Positions 428-11,912 of a DNA stretch of 61,536 bases are shown here, piece by piece. The first letter of the stretch is position 1, and each line of letters opens with the position of its first letter. The position numbers and the translations under genes were made by a program. The stretch is taken from NCBI GenBank assembly GCA_946041635.1, contig CAMGDG010000001.1, forward strand, positions 1-61,536, in the 5' to 3' direction. Source of the stretch: an uncultured Clostridia bacterium. Lineage in GTDB: Bacteria; Bacillota; Clostridia; Oscillospirales; Acutalibacteraceae. The notes under the pieces are model-generated. The model worked only from the letters and a program-made list of their open reading frames with translations, did no database searches and was not told the DNA's origin.

Positions 428-1501
428 CTATTTTTGCGGTGTATATTCAAAAGTATATGCCTCAAATCCGTCGGAATAGAGTTGCTCACCGTCATTCATA
501 ACCCACATTGCTTCAACATTTTCTGTTGACTCAACAAGTTTTTTGCCGTCTTCATAACTCATAAGGAATAATGCTGTTGACAAAGCATCGCCAAGCCCTG
601 AATCATTTGTAAGAACTGACACTGAACGGTATTTTGTACCGGGCATTAAGGTGTTGGGGTCAATAATATGGTGATAACTCTTGCCATCCACATAATAAAA
701 TCTTTGGTATGAGCCGCTTGTAACAATTGACTCACCCGCTACTTTAAGAAACTCGATATACGGTTTTTCTTTATTTTCGGTATCGGGATTTTCAATGCCC
801 ACTTGCCATTTATCGCCATTTGCCATACCGATTGTGCGAACATTTCCGCCAACATTGAGAATGTAGCCTGTTACACCTTTTTCTTCAAGGTGTTTGGCAA
901 TTTGTTCAACGGCATATCCTTTTGCGATTGCACCCACATCGAGGGTCATATCCGGGTCTTGAATAAATACTGTGTTATTCTCTGTATCAATAATCAAATC
1001 GTCAATATCGGTGTGTTTTGATGCTTCTATCAGTTTTTCCATTGGGGGCAATTCTGCATTAACAGGGTCATCAAGGCCCTCATTTCGATAAATATGCCAT
1101 ATTTTAAGCACACTTCCCATTGCCACATTCACATTTCCATAGGTTTTTGAGTACATTTCTTTTGCGAAAACTAACATATCAATGATTTTTTTATCAACTG
1201 TGACAATATCATGCTTGCCGTTGTTCACATCGTTAATTGTAACAAGGTTATTAAGCCCTTCATAGCGGTTATAAATAGTGAAAAGTCGGTGATATTCATT
1301 GAGCAGAGTTGTGATTTCTTCACAATTTGCATCAAAGTCTTCTTTTGTTTTTTCATAGCCTACAATTGTTGTCGCTGTATCAAAATAGTCAAAATAATAG
1401 TTACTAAACTTTTGAAGTTCTTCATTTTTCTCACAGCCCGAAAGTGCCGTAACTGTAAATAACATTGACGCAATCAAGACTATTGAAATAACTCTTTTCA
1501 T
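428..1501 (-). CDS. apbE: ApbE-family FAD:protein FMN transferase, lipoprotein
   Basis: ORF 428..1546. Preferred start is ATG 1501, giving MKRVISIVLIASMLFTVTALSGC (signal peptide plus lipobox). ApbE-like blocks present: LDVGAIAKGYA, VTSGSYQRF, HHIIDPNT, GDALSTALF. Confidence 0.9.
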   Translation of the reverse strand: MKRVISIVLIASMLFTVTALSGCEKNEELQKFSNYYFDYFDTATTIVGYEKTKEDFDANCEEITTLLNEYHRLFTIYNRYEGLNNLVTINDVNNGKHDIVTVDKKIIDMLVFAKEMYSKTYGNVNVAMGSVLKIWHIYRNEGLDDPVNAELPPMEKLIEASKHTDIDDLIIDTENNTVFIQDPDMTLDVGAIAKGYAVEQIAKHLEEKGVTGYILNVGGNVRTIGMANGDKWQVGIENPDTENKEKPYIEFLKVAGESIVTSGSYQRFYYVDGKSYHHIIDPNTLMPGTKYRSVSVLTNDSGLGDALSTALFLMSYEDGKKLVESTENVEAMWVMNDGEQLYSDGFEAYTFEYTPQK

Positions 1502-1623
1502 TTTTTCACCGCCTAAAAAATAGTCAAAAGAAAATCTAATTATCAATTAAACTTTATTTTGATTACTCTAAAAAAATGAGGATGTTGCGTTAACAACATC
1601 CCCGAATTTTTAATATGCTGAAA

Positions 1624-2673
1624 TTATGCTTTTACAGCAGCTTCGGCAGCTTTTACCATATCGCCGACAGACATTGTGCAACCTGCTGTTGCAAGGTCGC
1701 CTGTTGCATAACCGTCAGTACCTGCGAGAGCTGCGAAATCAGCAGCTGTCTTGCCAACAAGAGCCTTGTCGAACTCTGCAGCCTGAGCATACCATTCGAG
1801 AGGCTTGCCTTCGCTACCGTCATGCTTTTTGCCGAATTTAGCCATATTGTATTCGTCACCTTGTTCAAGCTTTGACTTAACTTCAGCTTTTGCATCGTAT
1901 GTAGCTTCGCCCTTAGCGTTGAATGTAATCTTACCCTGTGTGCAGTCTGTCTTAGCAACTACAACTTTGCCTTCTGCATCTGTAACAGCAGCAACGATTG
2001 TTGTGTCAACCTGGTTGAGACCGTCGTTTTCTTCGTCAGCATCTTTGTTTGAATATGATGCAGATGTTACAAGAGCAATGCTAAGCTTGTTTTCTGCTGT
2101 TGCAGCAGAATCTGCAGCATTAGCAACTGCCTTTTCAAGAGCTGCTACGAAATCTGTAACATGGATTGTGCAACCTGCAGCTGCAAGGTCACCCTGTGCA
2201 TAACCGTCGTCAGCCATAAGAGCTTTAACTTCTGCAAGTGTCTTTCCCTTTGCTGCTGCCATAAATGCATCAGCCTGAGCATTCCATTCAAGCGGTTTGC
2301 CCTCACTGCCGTCATGCTTCTTACCGAAAGCAGCCATGTTGTAGTCTGTGCCTTTGTCATACTTTGTTCTGAAGTCTTCAACATCAACTTTCTTGCCGTC
2401 TTCTGTCCATGACGGTTTAATTTGAGCTGTGTCAAGGTCGATTGAAACAATCTTTGAATCAGCGTCAAGAAGAACTGCAACTGCTGTTGTGTTGAATTCA
2501 CCTGTTGTCTCTTTTGCTTCGCCGTAGTTGGCAACTACGCCAAGGCCGAATTTAAGAGTAGCGGGTGCTTCGCCGTTAGGTTCGCCGTTAGGTTTGTCTT
2601 TTGTGCAACCTGCAAGAGCAACAACTGCCAAGAGCATTACTACTGCAAGTGCTACACTAAGAATCTTTTTCAT
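1624..2673 (-). CDS. Lipoprotein made of two tandem FMN_bind-like domains (internal duplication)
   Basis: ORF 1624..2715. Preferred start is ATG 2673, behind RBS AAGGAG, giving MKKILSVALAVVMLLAVVALAGC (lipobox). Two ~150-aa repeats each contain NMA(A/K)FGKKHDGSEGKPLEW and end in GDLA(A/T)AGCT(I/M), which aligns with RnfG DIATVSGATMTT. Confidence 0.75.
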   Translation of the reverse strand: MKKILSVALAVVMLLAVVALAGCTKDKPNGEPNGEAPATLKFGLGVVANYGEAKETTGEFNTTAVAVLLDADSKIVSIDLDTAQIKPSWTEDGKKVDVEDFRTKYDKGTDYNMAAFGKKHDGSEGKPLEWNAQADAFMAAAKGKTLAEVKALMADDGYAQGDLAAAGCTIHVTDFVAALEKAVANAADSAATAENKLSIALVTSASYSNKDADEENDGLNQVDTTIVAAVTDAEGKVVVAKTDCTQGKITFNAKGEATYDAKAEVKSKLEQGDEYNMAKFGKKHDGSEGKPLEWYAQAAEFDKALVGKTAADFAALAGTDGYATGDLATAGCTMSVGDMVKAAEAAVKA

Positions 2674-2808
2674 AGTGTTTTTCTCCTTTGAAAATTTAAT
2701 TATTTCTGTGGACACACTTCCACAATTTCACAAGATGATTATCCCACAAAAAAATAGTTCTGTCAATATTTTAACAATGAAAAATTTACAGAAACTATTA
2801 CAATTTTG

Positions 2809-3312
2809 TTATAATTTGATTTTTTCAAAACGCTTTATGATAATGGACGCAACAATGCCTACAAAAACGCCTGCAACAGTTCCGGTAACGGCAAGCACTA
2901 ACATATAATAGCCTATTTGACTCGTTTCAAAAATAGCCATTGCCACAAGGATTTGACCTAAATTGTGAGCAACGCCGCCGACAATGCTGACACCCACCGT
3001 TGAGAACAAATTCAACTTTTTGCAAAGCGTCATTAAACTCAAACTGAGTATTGCACCTGCGGCACTGTAAGCTAAGGTCATAACATTGCCGAATAAAAGA
3101 GCTACCAAAAAAAGTCTGATTGCAGAAACCGTTACGGCATCTTTAAGCCCTGTTTTATAGAGTATAAAAATTATTATTATATTGGGAAGTCCTATTTTTA
3201 TGCCGGGTACTGCCGACCAAATCGGCGGCAATATGGCTTCAACATAGGATAGGACAAGTGCCACTGTTGTCAGTAAACCCAATACCGAGTATCTTCTTAT
3301 ATTCTGTTTCAT
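2809..3312 (-). CDS. Gx transporter family protein (Hpre_diP_synt_I / ECF-S-like small polytopic membrane protein)
   Basis: 167 aa, about 5 hydrophobic helices. N-terminus RRYSVLGLLTTVALVLSYVE...PGIKIGLPNI is typical of this family (recognised from memory). RBS AGGAG. Confidence 0.7.
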   Translation of the reverse strand: MKQNIRRYSVLGLLTTVALVLSYVEAILPPIWSAVPGIKIGLPNIIIIFILYKTGLKDAVTVSAIRLFLVALLFGNVMTLAYSAAGAILSLSLMTLCKKLNLFSTVGVSIVGGVAHNLGQILVAMAIFETSQIGYYMLVLAVTGTVAGVFVGIVASIIIKRFEKIKL

Positions 3313-3321
3313 AAATTGCTC

Positions 3322-3723
3322 CTAAACGGCCACATCGAGTCCACCGTCGGCGTTGTCGTTTGTAATTTCAATAACAAGCTTGTGCGGAAGACAAACAACA
3401 GTTTCACCGACAAATGACACCGGTCTTGTTTCAACACAAATCTTATCGGGACAGTCGGCTTCACTGATTGACGCTTTTCCGTCTTTTATTGTGAGTATGT
3501 TGATATGCTCGTCATTCTCACCGGTTATTATGGGTACTTCTATGTTTTCTGAAAGCGGATATGACGCTGTTTGTTTGCCGTCAATTTTCACCGAAACAGT
3601 TGAGCCTGCTTCTCTATTCAAGACGAAAAGCAAAAGCCCCGCTGCCGCTATAAAAATTATAGCGACAGCAAGGATTATGTCATTTCTTAATTTTCGATTT
3701 TTTTGAGAATTGTTATTCTTCAT
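3322..3723 (-). CDS. NusG domain II-containing protein (DUF1312-like), membrane-anchored
   Basis: 133 aa with one N-terminal TM helix. C-terminal CPDKICV...GETVVCLPHKLVIEI matches the pattern of NusG_II/DUF1312 proteins. Confidence 0.7.
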   Translation of the reverse strand: MKNNNSQKNRKLRNDIILAVAIIFIAAAGLLLFVLNREAGSTVSVKIDGKQTASYPLSENIEVPIITGENDEHINILTIKDGKASISEADCPDKICVETRPVSFVGETVVCLPHKLVIEITNDNADGGLDVAV

Positions 3724-3727
3724 AAAA

Positions 3728-4543
3728 TCAACCGATTACTCCGTTTTTCATATCAACGACTTTCAAACGACCTGTTGGGCAAACCTTTGCACATTCGCCG
3801 CAGTCTTCACACTTAGCATAGTCGATAACCGCAAGATTATCAATAACCTTGATTGCGTCGTGCTGACAAGTCTTTTCACATTTTTTACAGCCGATACAAG
3901 CGTTCATACAGTTTTTACGGGCAATTGCACCCTTTTCTTTATTGCTGCAAGCAACTGCAACAACAACATCTTCGCCAACCAAAGAGATAACTCCCTTAGG
4001 ACATGTTTTTACGCATTTGCCGCAAGCTATACAAACTCTCGGGTCAATATGTGCAAGGGTATCTTTAACGGAAATTGCACCAACGGGGCATTCTGCCACA
4101 CAGTCGCCCAAACCGATACAACCGAATTTGCAGGAGAACGGTCCGCCGTAAACCATTGCGGCCGCTTTACAGCTTTGAAGTCCTTCATAAACTGTTTTTT
4201 GAGCAACCGCCGAGCAGTCACCGCTGCAATTTACATAAGCAACCTTTGGTTCACCGACACTTACTTCAACGCCCAAAATGTTTGAGAGCTGACCTGCTAC
4301 ATCGGATCCGCCCGGAATACACAAATTTGCTTCTGCCTTGCCGTCTGCTACTGCTTCGGCATAAGCGTCACAGCCTGCAAATCCGCAAGCACCGCAGTTT
4401 GCACCCGGAAGACATTCACGAACTGCTTTAACTGTTTCATTTTCTTCAACCTTGAAGAAATGTGATGCTAAGGCCAACAAAACACCTGCGAGCACGCCGA
4501 TTGCCGACAACACAAGAAGTGGTATTAAAATACTTTGTATCAT
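3728..4543 (-). CDS. rnfB: Rnf complex subunit B (polyferredoxin)
   Basis: N-terminal TM helix, CPGANCGACGFAGCDAYA Fe-S domain, and several CxxCxxCxxxCP motifs (CIACGKCVKTCP, CEDCGECAKVCP). RBS GGAGGGG. Confidence 0.95.
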   Translation of the reverse strand: MIQSILIPLLVLSAIGVLAGVLLALASHFFKVEENETVKAVRECLPGANCGACGFAGCDAYAEAVADGKAEANLCIPGGSDVAGQLSNILGVEVSVGEPKVAYVNCSGDCSAVAQKTVYEGLQSCKAAAMVYGGPFSCKFGCIGLGDCVAECPVGAISVKDTLAHIDPRVCIACGKCVKTCPKGVISLVGEDVVVAVACSNKEKGAIARKNCMNACIGCKKCEKTCQHDAIKVIDNLAVIDYAKCEDCGECAKVCPTGRLKVVDMKNGVIG

Positions 4544-4555
4544 ATTTTCCCCTCC

Positions 4556-5152
4556 TTATGCAAGAATATTTTCAACAATTCCGGCAAAGCCGAAGAATGC
4601 CATTGAAATAAATGATGCTGCTACAAGTGTTACGGGAAGTCCCTTAAAGCTTTCAGGCACTTCACTCTCTTCGATGCGAGAACGCATTCCTGAGAAGAGT
4701 ACCATTGCAAGCAAGAAACCAAGTCCCACACCCAATGAGCTTATCATTGATTCTAAGAAATTGTATCCGTCCGTAATATTGTTGATTGTTACACCTAAAA
4801 CCGCACAGTTCGTTGTAATAAGCGGAAGATAAACACCGAGACTCTTATGAAGAGCAGGAATAACCTTCTTCAAGAAAATTTCAATGAACTGAACAAGTGT
4901 AGCAATAATGAGAATGAATGCAATTGTCTGCATATATCCCATATTAAGCGGATTAAGGATAAAGGTCTGAATCGGCCATGTTACAGCTGTTGCAACAAGC
5001 ATAACGAAAATAACTGCCGCACCCATACCAACCGACTGATTAACCTTTTTTGATACGCCAAGGAACGGGCAAATACCAAGGAAACGGTTAAGAACATAGT
5101 TGTCAACAAGAACTGATGACATCAAAATAATAATCAATGCTTTAACTTCCAT
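4556..5152 (-). CDS. rnfA: Rnf complex subunit A
   Basis: 198-aa polytopic protein of the RnfA/NqrE type, positioned between rnfE and rnfB. Confidence 0.93.
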   Translation of the reverse strand: MEVKALIIILMSSVLVDNYVLNRFLGICPFLGVSKKVNQSVGMGAAVIFVMLVATAVTWPIQTFILNPLNMGYMQTIAFILIIATLVQFIEIFLKKVIPALHKSLGVYLPLITTNCAVLGVTINNITDGYNFLESMISSLGVGLGFLLAMVLFSGMRSRIEESEVPESFKGLPVTLVAASFISMAFFGFAGIVENILA

Positions 5153-5153
5153 A

Positions 5154-5855
5154 TTATTCGCCCTCCTTCACTGCTTCTGCGCAACCGCCGTTGCATGCTT
5201 CTGCTGACGGGCAGCCGGCACAGGAGAATTCTTTCTTCTTGATGAGTTTACCCTTTGTAATCTTATTTACAACTGCAATGAGAAGACCGTAAACTAAAAG
5301 TCCGCCCGGAGCCTTTGCAAGGAAACCGATTGTCAAACCGTTTTCAACAAGGAATGAAATTTCGTTGCCCGCAAATGAGCCTGTACCGATAACTTCACGG
5401 ATAATTGCCATTGAAAGAAGTGCAATTGTGAAGCCGATACCCATTCCGATACCGTCAAGTGCCGATTTGCCCACCGAGTTTTTACCTGCGAACATTTCTG
5501 CACGGCCTAAAATAATGCAGTTAACTGTAATAAGCGCTAAGTAAACACCCAATGTTTTGTATAAATCGGGAATGAATGCCTGAATAAGCATTTGAACGAT
5601 TGTAACGAATCCCGCGATAACAACGATATAGCAAGGAATTCTGACTGTGTCTGGAATGAATTTACGCAACAATGAAATAACAATGTTTGAGCATATCAAT
5701 ACCGCCATTGTTGCAAGTCCCATACCCAATGCACCGTCTACTGTGGAGGTTGTTGCAAGGGTTGGACAAGTGCCGAGAATAAGAACGAAAACAGGGTTTT
5801 CACGGAGAAGACCTTTTAAGAGAATTGACATATTGTTTTGTTTACTCAACTTCAA
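5154..5855 (-). CDS. rnfE: Rnf complex subunit E with a Cys-rich C-terminal tail
   Basis: NPVFVLILGTCPTLATT motif of the RnfE/NqrD type. TTG start at 5855 lies behind GGAAGGAG and overlaps the rnfG stop; the alternative ATG at 5831 lacks an RBS. The tail reads FSCAGCPSAEACNGGCAEAV. Confidence 0.9.
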   Translation of the reverse strand: MKLSKQNNMSILLKGLLRENPVFVLILGTCPTLATTSTVDGALGMGLATMAVLICSNIVISLLRKFIPDTVRIPCYIVVIAGFVTIVQMLIQAFIPDLYKTLGVYLALITVNCIILGRAEMFAGKNSVGKSALDGIGMGIGFTIALLSMAIIREVIGTGSFAGNEISFLVENGLTIGFLAKAPGGLLVYGLLIAVVNKITKGKLIKKKEFSCAGCPSAEACNGGCAEAVKEGE

Positions 5856-7033
5856 GCCACTCCTTCCATAATCTTAACAGCTTTAATTGCTTGGCCGATA
5901 CCCTTTTGATAACCCTTTGTTGTGAGAGTTACGCCTGCTACGATATCGACATCTGTATATGTTGTTTCATCTTTGCCAACATATTGTGAGCTGAATTCTT
6001 TATCTTTACAAATTGAGCCTACGCCATCTGTTTCTGCCTGTTTAGTTGTCTGACAGCTGATGATTTCGCCTTTGTTTGTCAATGCTATCTTAATGTAGAT
6101 ATATTCGCCTGACGGGTTATAGTAATTATCGCCGTTCTTGCCGAAGCCTGAAGCATGGATTTCAAGAACATAGTTGCCACTGTTTGTCTTATATGCCTTT
6201 TCTACATTTGAAGGCATATCGGCATATTTGCTGATGTCAATTTCTTTAAGGCTTGTTGAGAGCATAATCTTTGCCGCTGCTTCAATGTTTGCCTTAACAT
6301 CGTCAGTTGCTTCTGAAACAACCGTGCCGTTAGCGTCAACACCGACAAAGAGTTCTTCGTCGTTAACTGTTGTTACATAAACAAAGCCTGCACCGTTTTC
6401 TGCTTCATAGATTCCTGATACATTTTCAAGTTTTTCACATATAAATACTTCTGTGAAGTTTTCACCTGCCGGAAGTGCCGCTTTAAGATTATCTTGAAGA
6501 ATTTCTTCGTCTGAACGAAGGTCTGCACTGCCGCCGCCGAGAATGATTGCAGTGTTAAGTGCATCCTTAACTGCATTTCTGTATGCGCTCGTTGTCATTG
6601 TTGCGCCGGAAACGGTTGCAATATCTTCAACGGTATCAATTGTAGCACCCTTTAATGTGTCTCCGTAAGTCTTTTCAGCACCGAGAGTTTCGTTGCTTGA
6701 AAGACAAACAGCACCTGTTACATTACCGTCAGCGTCAACGCCGCACATAATAATCAAATCCGGACCGTAACCTGTTGCCGAAAGTTTTACTACACAGCCG
6801 CCGTTTGAAGCGGTGTAAGCTTCAATAACTGATTCGGGAAGTGTGTATTGTGTCATATCAACCTGGGTGAAGTCGCCGCCGTCAGGCATTACAACGAGCA
6901 ATGCTTCGTTAGCCGCCGCACCTGCATTTTTTTCGATAATCGGAGCAGTTACAAAATTTGTTACCGATAAAGCAACTGTAACCAATGCGATGATTACTGT
7001 CAAAGAGATAATACTTTTTATGTAATTTTTCAT
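5852..7033 (-). CDS. rnfG: Rnf complex subunit G, double-length, with two FMN_bind domains
   Basis: 393 aa with an N-terminal TM anchor. First domain ends DIATVSGATMTT (canonical SGAT). Second C-terminal domain ends DVDIVAGVTLTT. The start overlaps the rnfD stop (TAATG). Confidence 0.9.
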   Translation of the reverse strand: MKNYIKSIISLTVIIALVTVALSVTNFVTAPIIEKNAGAAANEALLVVMPDGGDFTQVDMTQYTLPESVIEAYTASNGGCVVKLSATGYGPDLIIMCGVDADGNVTGAVCLSSNETLGAEKTYGDTLKGATIDTVEDIATVSGATMTTSAYRNAVKDALNTAIILGGGSADLRSDEEILQDNLKAALPAGENFTEVFICEKLENVSGIYEAENGAGFVYVTTVNDEELFVGVDANGTVVSEATDDVKANIEAAAKIMLSTSLKEIDISKYADMPSNVEKAYKTNSGNYVLEIHASGFGKNGDNYYNPSGEYIYIKIALTNKGEIISCQTTKQAETDGVGSICKDKEFSSQYVGKDETTYTDVDIVAGVTLTTKGYQKGIGQAIKAVKIMEGVA

Positions 7034-7959
7034 TATTTCTTACCTCCAAACAGTTTTCTTGGTGTTAATGAATCAATATAGGGATTCACGATGTTCATAA
7101 GAAGAATTGCAAATGAAACACCTTCAGGATAACCGCCGAAGAAACGAATAAGCACTGTGATTACACCTGCGCCGATACCGAAGATAAGTTTGCCCTTTAC
7201 AGTAGAGGGAGATGTTACATAATCAGTTGCCATAAAGAAAGCGCCAATCATAAGACCGCCCGAAAGTACCCAAGCAAGTGTTGTTTCAAAATTGCCGCCT
7301 TCAAGTGCCAATGTGAAAAGGAATGTTGTGCCGATAAACGCAACAGGAATATGCCATGTGATTACTTTGCGAACGATGAGATAAACACCGCCGATAAGAA
7401 GTGCCAATGCGCAAGTTTCACCGAGAGCACCGCCGCATTTACCAAGGAACAAATCCATAAGGTTGAGTGTCTTGTCTTGTGCAAGTTCCGCCAGCGGTGT
7501 TGCACCGGATGTTGCATCTAAACCTTTTGGGAAAACCGCCGCAGTCATTGAGCCGAATGCAATAAGCATAAACACACGAGCCGCAATTGCCGGGTTTACA
7601 ATGTTTTTACCGAGACCGCCGAAAATTCCTTTTACAATGATAATTGCAAAAAGAGAACCTACTGCCGCTTGCCATAACGGAATATTTGCAGGAAGATTAA
7701 GTGCTAAAATCAAGCCTGTAACAACTGCGCTCAAATCTCCTATTGTCTGCTCTTTCTTGATTGCCAAGTTGAAAAGTGCTTCGCCCGCTACCGCAGAAAC
7801 TACGCATACTGCAATTACAAGCAATGCGGGAATACCGAAAAGGATAACCGCCGCAACAGATGCGGGTACAAGAGCAATAATGACATCGAGCATTGTTCTC
7901 ATTGTTGAGTTATTGCTATGTATATGCGGAGACAATGAAACATGAAGTTTGTTTTCCAT
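7033..7959 (-). CDS. rnfD: Rnf complex subunit D
   Basis: 308-aa polytopic protein with the DATSGATPL flavinylation motif. The start overlaps the rnfC stop. Confidence 0.95.
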   Translation of the reverse strand: MENKLHVSLSPHIHSNNSTMRTMLDVIIALVPASVAAVILFGIPALLVIAVCVVSAVAGEALFNLAIKKEQTIGDLSAVVTGLILALNLPANIPLWQAAVGSLFAIIIVKGIFGGLGKNIVNPAIAARVFMLIAFGSMTAAVFPKGLDATSGATPLAELAQDKTLNLMDLFLGKCGGALGETCALALLIGGVYLIVRKVITWHIPVAFIGTTFLFTLALEGGNFETTLAWVLSGGLMIGAFFMATDYVTSPSTVKGKLIFGIGAGVITVLIRFFGGYPEGVSFAILLMNIVNPYIDSLTPRKLFGGKK

Positions 7960-9272
7960 TATGCATTACCCTCCTTTTTCTTTGCACGCTCTGCCGCAAG
8001 CATATTCTTTGCCAAACTGTTCGTTTCAACCAAAGGACGCTTTGCGGGACAAACATAAGCACAACAACCGCAGAGCATACAGATATCTGCACCCAACTTT
8101 TCGAGTGCTTCGGCATCTTTATTCTTATATGCCTTTGCAATAGCTGCCGGATTGATACCGAACGGGCAACTGTTTGTGCACTTGCCGCATTTGATACAAG
8201 CGGTTGTTTTTGCTGTTTTTGTTTCTTTCTTATTGAATGCTATGAGAGCATTGGTCTGTTTGAGCACCGGCACTGTAAGGTCGGGTACTGCAACGCCCAT
8301 CATAGGTCCGCCATAGATAACTTTTTCGGGGTCGGAGTTAAATCCGCCGCAAAAATCGAACACTTCACCTATGGGTGTACCGATTGCAACGATTACATTC
8401 TTCGGCTCTTTAACTGCGCCGCCGTCAACTGTAACCACCTTTTCTACAAGTGGCATACCTGTTTTTAAGTATTTACCGATATTTGCCATTGTTGATGAGT
8501 TACACACGATGCAACCTACATCTGCCGGAAGCTCGCCGACTTTAACAGTTCTGCCGACAGTATGATAAATGAGAACTTTCTCGCCGCCTTGCGGATAAAC
8601 CGATGAAAGAACTTTAACTTGAATTTTATTATTCTTTGCCGAGAGTTCTTTCATTTTTGCAATAGCGGACGGTTTGTTCTTTTCAATACCGATAACTATT
8701 TTTTCAAAGTTAAAGTATTTATCGGCAGTTTCAATTGCCAATAAAATGTCGTCGGCATTTTCTACCATTGTGATTGAATCGCTTGTAATATAAGGCTCAC
8801 ATTCTGCACCGTTGATCACAAGAGTATCTATTTTCTTGTCTGTTGCGAATTTTACATAAGTTGGAAATCCTGCGCCGCCAAGGCCCACAATACCGCTCTT
8901 TTTAACAGCTTCGATAAAATCCTCTTTACTGTTAATTTGCGGTGCCGCCACTGACTCATCGGGAGTCATTGCACCGTCCGACTCAATTGTGATTGCGGGA
9001 GCAGTTTTACCGTTTGAAATCACTGTATCTGCGATAGCTTTAACAGTACCCGATACACTTGAATAAACGGGAGAAGAAATAAATCCGTCTTGCTCGGCAA
9101 TCAATGTTCCCACTGATACTGTGTCGCCGACATTTACCACCGGTTTTGCAGGCTTTCCTATATGCATTGTAGTAAGCAACGTCACTGTTTTCGGAGCAGG
9201 CATTCTGGCTGCTTGCATATCGGCAGTATTCTTTCTGTGAGGCACATGAATACCTTTAAGAGAAAAAGCCAT
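7959..9272 (-). CDS. rnfC: Rnf complex subunit C
   Basis: ORF 7959..9338. Preferred start is ATG 9272 (MAFSLKGIHVP) behind AAAGGTAGGA. Contains GLGGAGFPT and two 4Fe-4S motifs, CIKCGKCTNSCP and CMLCGCCAYVCP. Confidence 0.93.
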   Translation of the reverse strand: MAFSLKGIHVPHRKNTADMQAARMPAPKTVTLLTTMHIGKPAKPVVNVGDTVSVGTLIAEQDGFISSPVYSSVSGTVKAIADTVISNGKTAPAITIESDGAMTPDESVAAPQINSKEDFIEAVKKSGIVGLGGAGFPTYVKFATDKKIDTLVINGAECEPYITSDSITMVENADDILLAIETADKYFNFEKIVIGIEKNKPSAIAKMKELSAKNNKIQVKVLSSVYPQGGEKVLIYHTVGRTVKVGELPADVGCIVCNSSTMANIGKYLKTGMPLVEKVVTVDGGAVKEPKNVIVAIGTPIGEVFDFCGGFNSDPEKVIYGGPMMGVAVPDLTVPVLKQTNALIAFNKKETKTAKTTACIKCGKCTNSCPFGINPAAIAKAYKNKDAEALEKLGADICMLCGCCAYVCPAKRPLVETNSLAKNMLAAERAKKKEGNA

Positions 9273-9375
9273 TTTTAATCCTACCTTTCTTTCTGTCGTA
9301 TCAAAGCAGAAGTATTTTTTTGGTAAATAGAACACCAAAAAGCATAATTCCGCACAATACTTCTATATCCTTCAT

Positions 9376-11020: not shown

Positions 11021-11912
11021 AAAGGTTTCATCTCTTTTAAAAGAATGGTATGAAGGTAATTTAAGCTTTGACGAAAGAATGGATAATGACAGTCATAAAA
11101 AAGAAACAGCGGAAGTTGAAGAAAAAGAAATTCGTCTTGTTAAAGATGTTGAAAAAGCCGAAAAGGAACTCACATCAAAAGGATATAAGTTTTTCTCAGT
11201 AATTTTCTGCGTTATTCTTGCGTTAATTCTCATACTGACCGTGAATTTTATGCCGCTTTTCGCAGACAATAACACGCCTACAACCAATGAAGTTTATGAG
11301 CACTATGTAGGCGAGGGTAGGGACCAAACGGGTGCTGTTAACACCGTTGCGGGTATGATTTTAGACTACCGTGCATTTGATACCTTGGGCGAATCCTTTG
11401 TTCTTTTCACCGCTACTTGTGCTGTTCTTCTTTTACTTGAACAAAGCAAGAAACAAAATGTTAAAGAAAAAGAATCATTCACATTTTCAAATGACCCGAT
11501 TGTTTGTACAATCGTTAAAATTATTACTCCTATTATCATCGTTTTCGGTGTATATGTTCTTTTCAACGGTCACATTTCTCCCGGCGGCGGATTTTCGGGC
11601 GGTTCTGTGCTCGGCGCCGGATTTATTCTCTTCGCCATGGCTTACGGTGAAGATAAGGCGGCAAAAATTATTACGCCAAAAATCATTCGTGTTATCACAA
11701 TTTGCTCTTTGAGTTTTTATTGTCTTGCAAAAAGTTATTCATTCTTCACAGGTAATGAATTCAACGGTATTCACTCAATAATTACTCCCGGTACACCCGG
11801 TGATATTGTTTCGGGCGGTTTGATTTTACCGCTTAACATTGCAGTTGGATTGGTTGTTTGCTGTACTATGTACAGTTTCTATATGGTTTTCAAAAGGGGG
11901 CGTCTTGATTGA
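11004..11912 (+). CDS. mrpB: MnhB/MrpB-domain subunit with a hydrophilic N-terminal extension
   Basis: 302 aa. The charged first ~65 aa are followed by a TM region containing TNEVYEHYV...GAVNTVAGMILDYRAFDTLGE, which is MnhB-like. The start is uncertain (17-nt overlap with the upstream ORF). Confidence 0.75.
   Translation: MLMKNKKVSSLLKEWYEGNLSFDERMDNDSHKKETAEVEEKEIRLVKDVEKAEKELTSKGYKFFSVIFCVILALILILTVNFMPLFADNNTPTTNEVYEHYVGEGRDQTGAVNTVAGMILDYRAFDTLGESFVLFTATCAVLLLLEQSKKQNVKEKESFTFSNDPIVCTIVKIITPIIIVFGVYVLFNGHISPGGGFSGGSVLGAGFILFAMAYGEDKAAKIITPKIIRVITICSLSFYCLAKSYSFFTGNEFNGIHSIITPGTPGDIVSGGLILPLNIAVGLVVCCTMYSFYMVFKRGRLD

Follow-up and report, generated by a model that had tools for sequence, protein, structure and literature searches.

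A 61,536-nucleotide stretch of DNA from an uncultured Clostridia bacterium (Bacillota; Oscillospirales; Acutalibacteraceae), comprising positions 1 to 61,536 of contig CAMGDG010000001.1 in GenBank assembly GCA_946041635.1, is the window analyzed here. Near its beginning, the minus strand encodes a two-domain lipoprotein, hereafter the target, whose possible role as a flavin-carrying partner of the Rnf complex is the subject of this work. On that strand the genes follow one another as rnfC, rnfD, rnfG, rnfE, rnfA, rnfB, a gene for a NusG_II-domain protein, a gene matching PF07456, the target gene, and apbE, the last lying directly downstream of the target. The genomes nearest to that of the host are those of Candidatus Fimenecus / Acutalibacteraceae.

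A preliminary description of this locus, made from the sequence alone, had presented the target as a PplA-like double FMN_bind lipoprotein whose link is with Rnf and not with an Ndh2/EetAB module. The Rnf linkage holds; the adjoining membrane module is rnfCDGEAB, and the cluster contains no Ndh2 or Dmk genes. The contrast with EetAB is partly wrong because an EetB homolog (PF07456) is encoded directly upstream. EetB is a subunit of a flavin adenine dinucleotide (FAD) exporter on which ApbE-type flavinylation depends in Listeria, and it has been found together with Rnf in 572 Clostridia genomes (PMC9973259). The identification of the next gene as a lipoprotein ApbE is confirmed by its Pfam match and lipobox (Table 1).

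The open reading frame (ORF) of the target starts with MKKILSVALAVVMLLAVVALAGC, a signal peptide with the lipobox LAGC, from which its extracytoplasmic location is predicted. Cys23, the predicted lipidation site, is kept in at least 90% of aligned homologs, and a lipobox is present in 82 of the 85 family ORFs in the loci collected. The two tandem repeats of about 150 amino acids (aa) proposed earlier are borne out, far beyond chance, as the halves of the protein align by BLASTP with 50% identity over 119 residues (E 5e-34). Each repeat closes with DLA(A/T)AGCT, as had been read from the sequence, with the Thr codons at 2167-2169 and 1675-1677 and a helix after each motif. An AlphaFold2 (AF2) model of the two domains reached a pLDDT score (predicted local distance difference test) of 87.8 and a predicted TM-score (pTM) of 0.85. 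In this model and in that of a single domain, the strands are 10-15 residues long.

Table 1. Features of the target gene and of the surrounding cluster; positions refer to the window. CDS, coding sequence; ECF, energy-coupling factor; FMN, flavin mononucleotide; HMM, hidden Markov model.
Feature	Position	Strand	Evidence
CDS of the target, 349-aa lipoprotein with two FMN-bind2-type domains	1624-2673	-	ORF and translation; stop codon 1624-1626; start MKK... shared by more than 1148 homologs
Signal peptide and lipobox L-A-G-C; Cys23 predicted lipidation site	2605-2673	-	Read from sequence
Domain 1, residues 38-185	2119-2562	-	hmmsearch with repeat HMM, E 4e-69; single-domain AF2 model, pLDDT 92.6
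Domain 2, residues 192-348	1630-2100	-	hmmsearch with repeat HMM, E 2e-75; 50% identical to domain 1
Motif D-L-A-A-A-G-C-T, residues 162-169; Thr169 predicted FMN phosphoester site	2167-2190	-	Column conservation; alignment with 2KZX and RnfG
Motif D-L-A-T-A-G-C-T, residues 326-333; Thr333 predicted FMN phosphoester site	1675-1698	-	Read from sequence; column conservation
Promoter-like site TTGACA-17-TG-GATAAT, 11/12 matches	2738-2766	-	65 nt upstream of start codon; pattern match only
Terminator-like hairpin, 11 bp stem, then T-run	1578-1603	-	20 nt past stop codon; pattern match only
ApbE-family FAD:protein FMN transferase, lipoprotein (lipobox LSGC)	428-1501	-	Pfam PF02424, E 1.7e-67; ATG at 1501
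EetB homolog, ECF-S-like substrate subunit of FAD exporter	2809-3312	-	PF07456, E 6e-37; immediately upstream of target
Small NusG_II-domain membrane protein	3322-3723	-	Pfam PF07009, E 1.5e-28
rnfC-D-G-E-A-B block	3728-9338	-	ORFs; Pfam and NCBIfam matches for RnfG and RnfB; Pfam annotation of orthologous genes
RnfC	7959-9338	-	ORF
RnfD	7033-7959	-	ORF; canonical DATSGAT motif
RnfG, 393 aa, two FMN_bind domains	5852-7033	-	Pfam; motifs TVSGAT and DIVAGVT
RnfE	5154-5855	-	ORF
RnfA	4556-5152	-	ORF
RnfB	3728-4543	-	ORF; Pfam/NCBIfam

The target belongs to a large family. An exhaustive profile search (E<=1e-3) yielded 1454 representatives of 50%-identity clusters, and more than 1148 clusters were found in a 90%-identity database. 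Relatives occur in at least 371 species. All family homologs are labelled 'hypothetical' and none carries a Pfam domain. In direct scans of the target and of 32 single domains, weak matches to DUF7349 and Ntox47 stayed below threshold and were rejected. The HMM of the domain has 157 match positions. Copies come mostly in pairs: among 270 proteins, two domains were counted in 244, four in 11 and six in two, and the odd counts are mostly fragments.

Across 326 domain instances from the representatives, the putative acceptor column is Thr in 91% and Ser in 5% (Thr or Ser, 96%). The columns before it hold Ala (80%), then Gly (68%) or Ser (19%), then Cys (76%), Val (15%) or Ala (3%). In profile numbering, Asp51, Lys76, Tyr83, Met85, Glu101, Trp102, Gln105 and Gly115 are at least 93% conserved, and Gly63 reaches 92%. 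AGCT appears twice in 110 of the 120 closest homologs and in both domains of 78 among the 85 family ORFs; most of the family has it, and it is no oddity of the target. The motif was rightly called non-canonical when set against Dxx[S/T]GA[S/T]. Variants comprise ASVT, SSVT, ASCS, SGCT, SGAT and AGAT. At the corresponding column, the motifs of some sister members are canonical or close to it (DLISGAT, DLASGAT, DLLAGAT, DLxASVT). In a six-domain member from the Sphaerochaetaceae (Spirochaetota; locus L083, 8001-10952), all six motifs read ASCS, with Ser as the putative acceptor.

The Cys that precedes the putative acceptor Thr had been tentatively linked to unusual flavin or thiol chemistry. Essential thiol chemistry at this position was down-weighted here: Cys, Val and Ala interchange in the column, which argues against an essential role, and whole sub-clades in the same gene context carry Val or Ala. 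The residue is probably a small buried hydrophobic one tolerated by the cognate ApbE, and no redox centre, as judged from column composition. In a test substrate, an Ala-to-Val exchange retained about 50% of flavinylation, and an Asp-to-Ala exchange had only a minor effect (review PMC12052999). The second domain of RnfG in the window has Val at -1 (VDIVAGVT); at this place DAISGAT is found in most of 76 relatives, and AGVT in only 5 of the 76. Taken together, the mutagenesis and the AGVT of RnfG indicate tolerance at the -1 position.

The relationship of the domain to FMN_bind emerged from remote comparisons. Sequence searches of the PDB with the single protein and with a close-homolog profile (A1) found nothing. 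A profile of diverse single domains (A4) was the sole profile to reach PDB entry 2KZX, with an E of 7.3e-8. In this alignment, the canonical D-A-I-S-G-A-T of 2KZX falls on the AGCT column, and the Y-x-M and E-W-x-Q-A hallmarks are common to both. The 2KZX segment in turn scores 26.1 bits against Pfam FMN_bind and passes its gathering score of 22. By sequence, this 131-aa uncharacterized FMN_bind member is the solved structure closest to the target. It shares with the target Y-x-M, E-W-x-E-Q-A and the C-terminal motif with its helix. It differs in having a single, shorter domain and D-A-I-S-G-A-T instead of xxAGCT, and it is absent from the Foldseek results of the AF2 models.

Profile-profile alignment led to the same family. 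In local hhalign comparisons of the family profile with two RnfG-clade FMN_bind domains, scores of 22.8 and 28.3 were obtained (P 2.7e-3 and 3e-4), which none of 300 column-shuffled controls reached. The pairing places GKT...AGCT...helix on GK...SGAT/AGVT...helix of RnfG, which bears out the residue-for-residue match to the RnfG flavinylation segment noted in the preliminary description. In addition, in two family members a Pfam-recognized FMN_bind domain is naturally fused to two family domains. On the strength of the A4-2KZX-PF04205 bridge, the alignment to RnfG and these fusions, we take the domain to be a divergent relative of FMN_bind, overlooked by current models.

Among described domain types, the family matches FMN-bind2, a recently described class. 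According to the relevant passages of Huang, Meheust, Barquera and Light (mSystems 2024, PMC11334425), FMN-bind2 is a subtype of about 160 aa that has no InterPro identifier and was found by BLAST only. It occurs in even domain numbers (2, 4, and a 6x example), and its extended beta-sheet faces are predicted to join two domains in one rigid pseudo-symmetric unit that holds two predicted flavinylation sites. The exemplars given there are a 2x protein from an Erysipelotrichaceae bacterium (NTW96865.1) and a 6x protein from Hujiaoplasma (WP_312031774.1). The target family shares the domain length (about 155-160 aa), the lack of a Pfam/InterPro signature, the even copy numbers, the long beta-strands, the extracytoplasmic location and the association with ApbE, and the pTM of 0.85 for its two-domain model agrees with a paired arrangement. 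Every descriptive feature in those passages fits, and the identification is one by description, not by exemplar sequences. No AGCT motif, Rnf/EetB synteny or biochemical test of FMN-bind2 is mentioned in the passages used here, in section 5 or in Table S1 of that paper. The preliminary description had suggested an uncharacterized flavoprotein. What stands of this is an FMN_bind-related two-domain lipoprotein with Thr in the position of an ApbE target; the domain type itself, as far as those passages go, had already been described. The RnfCDGEAB-linked target is a probable further case of a kind that was described only in 2024.

The genomic setting of the family is strongly conserved, as the survey of homologs beside rnf and apbE that had been called for made clear. 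We compared 80 species-level GTDB genomes with proteins 40-84% identical to the target, which were obtained by scanning with the closer-homolog alignment. The order rnfCDGEAB-NusG_II-eetB-target-apbE is almost invariant among them, and apbE lies directly downstream of the target in nearly all loci. Three clusters are rearranged, and in these the target-apbE pair is still together, beside rnf. The NusG_II gene accompanies eetB in every cluster examined.

More distant relatives show further arrangements around apbE. In the Sphaerochaetaceae, the six-domain member with ASCS motifs directly precedes apbE-rnfCDGEA-NusG_II-eetB, and RnfG has 649 aa there. In Feifania, an FMN_bind fusion protein precedes apbE beside a divergent rnf operon. 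Fastidiosipila has NusG_II-eetB-6x domain-apbE standing alone, without rnf nearby. Two metagenomic clusters carry a reduced Rnf set. Locus L086 (7063-14260) comprises NusG_II-eetB-4x domain-apbE-rnfC-rnfD-rnfG and an ORF of 143/144 aa, without rnfE, rnfA and rnfB, and locus L087 (8001-14302) has the same type of 4x domain-apbE-rnfC-rnfD-rnfG cluster without NusG_II-eetB. The 143/144-aa ORF of both loci has no Pfam match. Judged by gene content, these two loci may encode a one-way pathway from NADH to the outside, made of half an Rnf complex with the multi-flavin protein as its terminal extracytoplasmic element. Overall, conservation of the tie to apbE and rnf is strong, and the tie to apbE spans two phyla and several rearrangements.

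Transcription signals at the target add a further element. A near-consensus sigma-70-like promoter pattern precedes the gene and a terminator-like hairpin follows it, which suggests that the target is transcribed separately and probably strongly. It may therefore be no plain internal operon gene, although it lies between eetB and apbE. Separate and strong transcription would fit a carrier needed in stoichiometric amounts. By the same pattern matching, equivalent promoter-like sites lie 5' of the orthologs in L008 (9912-9940, 11/12) and L036 (9939-9967, 12/12), orthologs that are 70% and 48% identical to the target. The L008 ortholog also has a similar downstream hairpin at 11077-11106.

Comparison with known flavinylated proteins clarifies where the target agrees with them and where it departs. 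Like the FMN_bind domains of RnfG and NqrC (FMN-bind1), it is extracytoplasmic and has a Thr at the same motif position before the last helix, and RnfG is encoded in the same cluster. RnfG and NqrC are flavinylated by ApbE, whereas flavinylation of the target is predicted. Unlike them, the target is a lipoprotein and not a subunit with an N-terminal transmembrane helix, has two domains predicted to pair through their sheets, and has no Pfam match. Its domains of 155-157 aa contain insertions and are about 40-80 aa longer than the FMN-bind1 core (roughly 120 aa) and the Pfam model (77 positions). PplA of Listeria monocytogenes is likewise a lipoprotein with two FMN-binding domains, and it is flavinylated by the ApbE-type FmnB with FAD exported via EetB. 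The target is also a two-domain lipoprotein and is flanked by an EetB homolog and ApbE. At the PplA locus, the membrane electron source is Ndh2/DmkA, as opposed to Rnf (or RnfCDG) here, and the domain subtype is different. Of the Listeria-type Ndh2/DmkA/EetA/EetB/FmnA/FmnB neighborhood, homologs of EetB and ApbE/FmnB are found at the target. The label PplA-like is apt as a functional analogy only and does not extend to the domain subtype.

Given the domain architecture, the relationship to FMN_bind, the conserved motif and the linked genes, we consider it likely that the target is an ApbE-flavinylated extracytoplasmic electron carrier coupled to Rnf. The protein would be lipid-anchored on the outward-facing side of the cytoplasmic membrane in this gut Clostridia bacterium. 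Its two FMN-bind2-type domains (about 155 aa each) would pack via their long beta-sheets into one pseudo-symmetric unit. EetB, the ECF-type exporter subunit encoded just upstream, would bring FAD to the outside, and the ApbE lipoprotein encoded just downstream would move the FMN moiety onto Thr169 and Thr333, yielding a two-flavin protein. This protein could then exchange electrons with the extracytoplasmic flavins of Rnf, for which the extra second FMN_bind domain of RnfG would be the obvious contact. We infer covalent flavinylation, partners and direction of flow from this arrangement: the target might serve as a carrier or outlet to external acceptors, or as an inlet from external donors.

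Several observations weigh against this reading. Neither the whole protein (E<=1) nor any of 32 single domains (E<=10) matches Pfam FMN_bind (PF04205), so that the search of each repeat recommended earlier came back empty at E<=10, and an NCBIfam scan of the target protein gave no match either. The order of secondary structure in the AF2 models fits FMN_bind (three strands, helices, motif, final helix), yet Foldseek searches of the PDB with both models returned no FMN_bind structure among the top 50, with ISCU/IscU as the best fold matches for the single domain. The preliminary description had held that an absence of FMN_bind similarity by HMM or structure would speak against its reading; taken literally, this is what the direct searches gave, and the link is recovered by the A4 profile through 2KZX to PF04205 and by hhalign. 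The motifs depart from canonical D-x-x-[S/T]-G-A-[S/T] in having Cys for Ala and Ala for Ser/Thr; their Asp stands at -7, one residue farther from the Thr than in the canonical form, so that the terminal Thr and the Gly are the canonical residues. In the literature examined, acceptance of Cys at -1 by ApbE is not reported. Adjacency to apbE alone does not prove that the target is a substrate, because ApbE is needed in the operon anyway for RnfD and RnfG. One distant AGAT member has no apbE within 8 kb. The tie to FMN-bind2, finally, is one of description: look-ups of six-domain members and further homolog searches returned proteins of Sphaerochaetaceae and Fastidiosipila or short fragments and no Hujiaoplasma or Erysipelotrichaceae exemplars.

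Among the alternatives, the one that survives best casts the target as a non-covalent shuttle or chaperone that passes FAD or FMN from EetB to ApbE for the modification of RnfD and RnfG, and not as an electron carrier. Its place between eetB and apbE, fixed in more than 80 genomes, would suit such a role, as would the persistence of the NusG_II-eetB-X-apbE cassette even without rnf nearby. However, many Clostridia Rnf/ApbE/EetB clusters work without a protein of this kind, and the 572 genomes mentioned above were defined without it (PMC9973259). The departure from the canonical ApbE target could also be taken to speak for a binder, but a mere binder would not need the Thr/Ser, which is the best-conserved position of the motif (96%), and relatives carry a fully canonical DxxSGAT. 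The strong promoter-like site of the target suggests a high copy number and counts in favor of a shuttle, whereas the expansion to four and six domains is better suited to an electron wire than to a chaperone. We regard a shuttle or chaperone as unlikely.

An unexpected signal came from the fold comparison. For the single-domain model (domain 1, 2107-2568), the top eight PDB matches in Foldseek are all ISCU/IscU, with probabilities of 0.97-0.99, E of 5e-3 to 3e-2, about 150 aligned columns and TM-scores of only 0.35-0.45. The two-domain model gave no match below E 0.001; its weak MHC-I-like and SecB matches were rejected as generic sheet-plus-helix similarity. Aligned by hhalign with IscU of E. 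coli and H. influenzae, the family profile scored 27.0 over 76 columns (P 3.9e-4), a value that none of 300 column shuffles attained. The pairs, family first, include Asp51/Asp39, Y-G-Met85/Y61-G-Cys63, E-W/E75-W76, GKT/GKS and Cys-Thr/Cys106-Ser107. An HMMER profile search of the PDB found no IscU at E<=10, none of the 32 single domains matched Pfam NifU_N at E<=10, and no IscU gene was found in the window or in any of the collected loci. The IscU/ISCU scaffold (NifU_N) differs from the target in that two of its three ligand cysteines are absent there, one Cys per domain being conserved (76%), and in that the context of the target is entirely flavin-related.

These comparisons hint that FMN_bind-type and NifU-type domains are remotely related. 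In a bolder version, AGCT-type FMN-bind2 would be an evolutionary link between the IscU/NifU fold and FMN_bind, with the Cys, which pairs with IscU Cys106, being no neutral stand-in for Ala but taking part in cofactor chemistry beside the flavinylated Thr. The Cys could, for example, act as a metal or persulfide ligand, form a flavin-thiol adduct or make a second covalent link. We hold this version to be quite unlikely; if true, Rnf would be wired to an extracytoplasmic redox site of a new kind.

The same signal could be pushed to the point where the target is no flavoprotein at all. Its domains would then be IscU/NifU-like modules that bind metal, Fe-S or sulfur via the Cys, Asp51 and Met85, and the protein would be a redox or scaffold lipoprotein based on metal or thiol, whose resemblance to flavinylation motifs was inherited from a common fold. 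All three residues are highly conserved in the family, and the Foldseek and hhalign results for IscU point the same way. Against this, HMMER on the PDB gives 2KZX at 7e-8 and no IscU at E<=10, and the TM-scores are low. No Fe-S assembly genes lie nearby, the neighboring genes being for flavin export and flavin transfer, and an Fe-S or thiol site exposed outside the membrane would be chemically fragile. An Fe-S or metal function is rated very unlikely because only one of the three Cys ligands of IscU has a counterpart, HMMER similarity is lacking, and Val (15%) or Ala (3%) replaces the Cys in whole sub-clades, some of them with the same apbE/rnf context. A flavin-unrelated binding or structural surface lipoprotein that merely shares its neighborhood with rnf and apbE would agree with the lack of direct database annotation, with the uniformly 'hypothetical' homologs and with the apparently separate transcription unit, but it is highly improbable given the significant profile link to FMN_bind, the members fused to FMN_bind domains, and the link to apbE, which is kept in two phyla and in clusters rearranged in several ways.

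Many gut anaerobes have Rnf as their central complex for energy conservation, and we know of no link from its extracytoplasmic flavins to anything outside the complex. If the target is a flavinylated carrier, as preferred here, it would be a strong candidate for an outlet that carries electrons from Rnf to acceptors outside the cell, and some relatives would receive them from an NADH-fed module with RnfCDG only. Flavinylation would also widen the recognition motif of ApbE to Cys or Val at -1, which would be useful for motif prediction and flavin-tag engineering. Pfam, NCBIfam and routine annotation do not see the family, although it is large and almost always encoded beside ApbE, so that it is undercounted when flavinylation substrates and the capacity for extracellular electron transfer in gut Clostridia are surveyed.

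Two minor features of the locus deserve mention. A loop KHDGSEGK precedes the conserved E-W in both domains (residues 119-126 and 283-290; about 2296-2319 and 1804-1827 of the window, minus strand). Close homologs have MDKNGDGK in its place, with an EF-hand-like DxNxDG pattern, and two domains yielded weak Pfam EF-hand matches (E 0.2-0.6). The KHDGSEGK/MDKNGDGK segment may be a Ca2+-binding loop. On the other side of the cluster, an operon for a Mrp/Mnh-type multi-subunit cation:proton antiporter (MnhE, F, G, MbhD, MnhB, and others) extends from 9564 to about 14000 on the plus strand, divergent from rnfC. This arrangement is kept in loci L001 and L002 and is consistent with a coupling of Na+/H+ cycling to Rnf.

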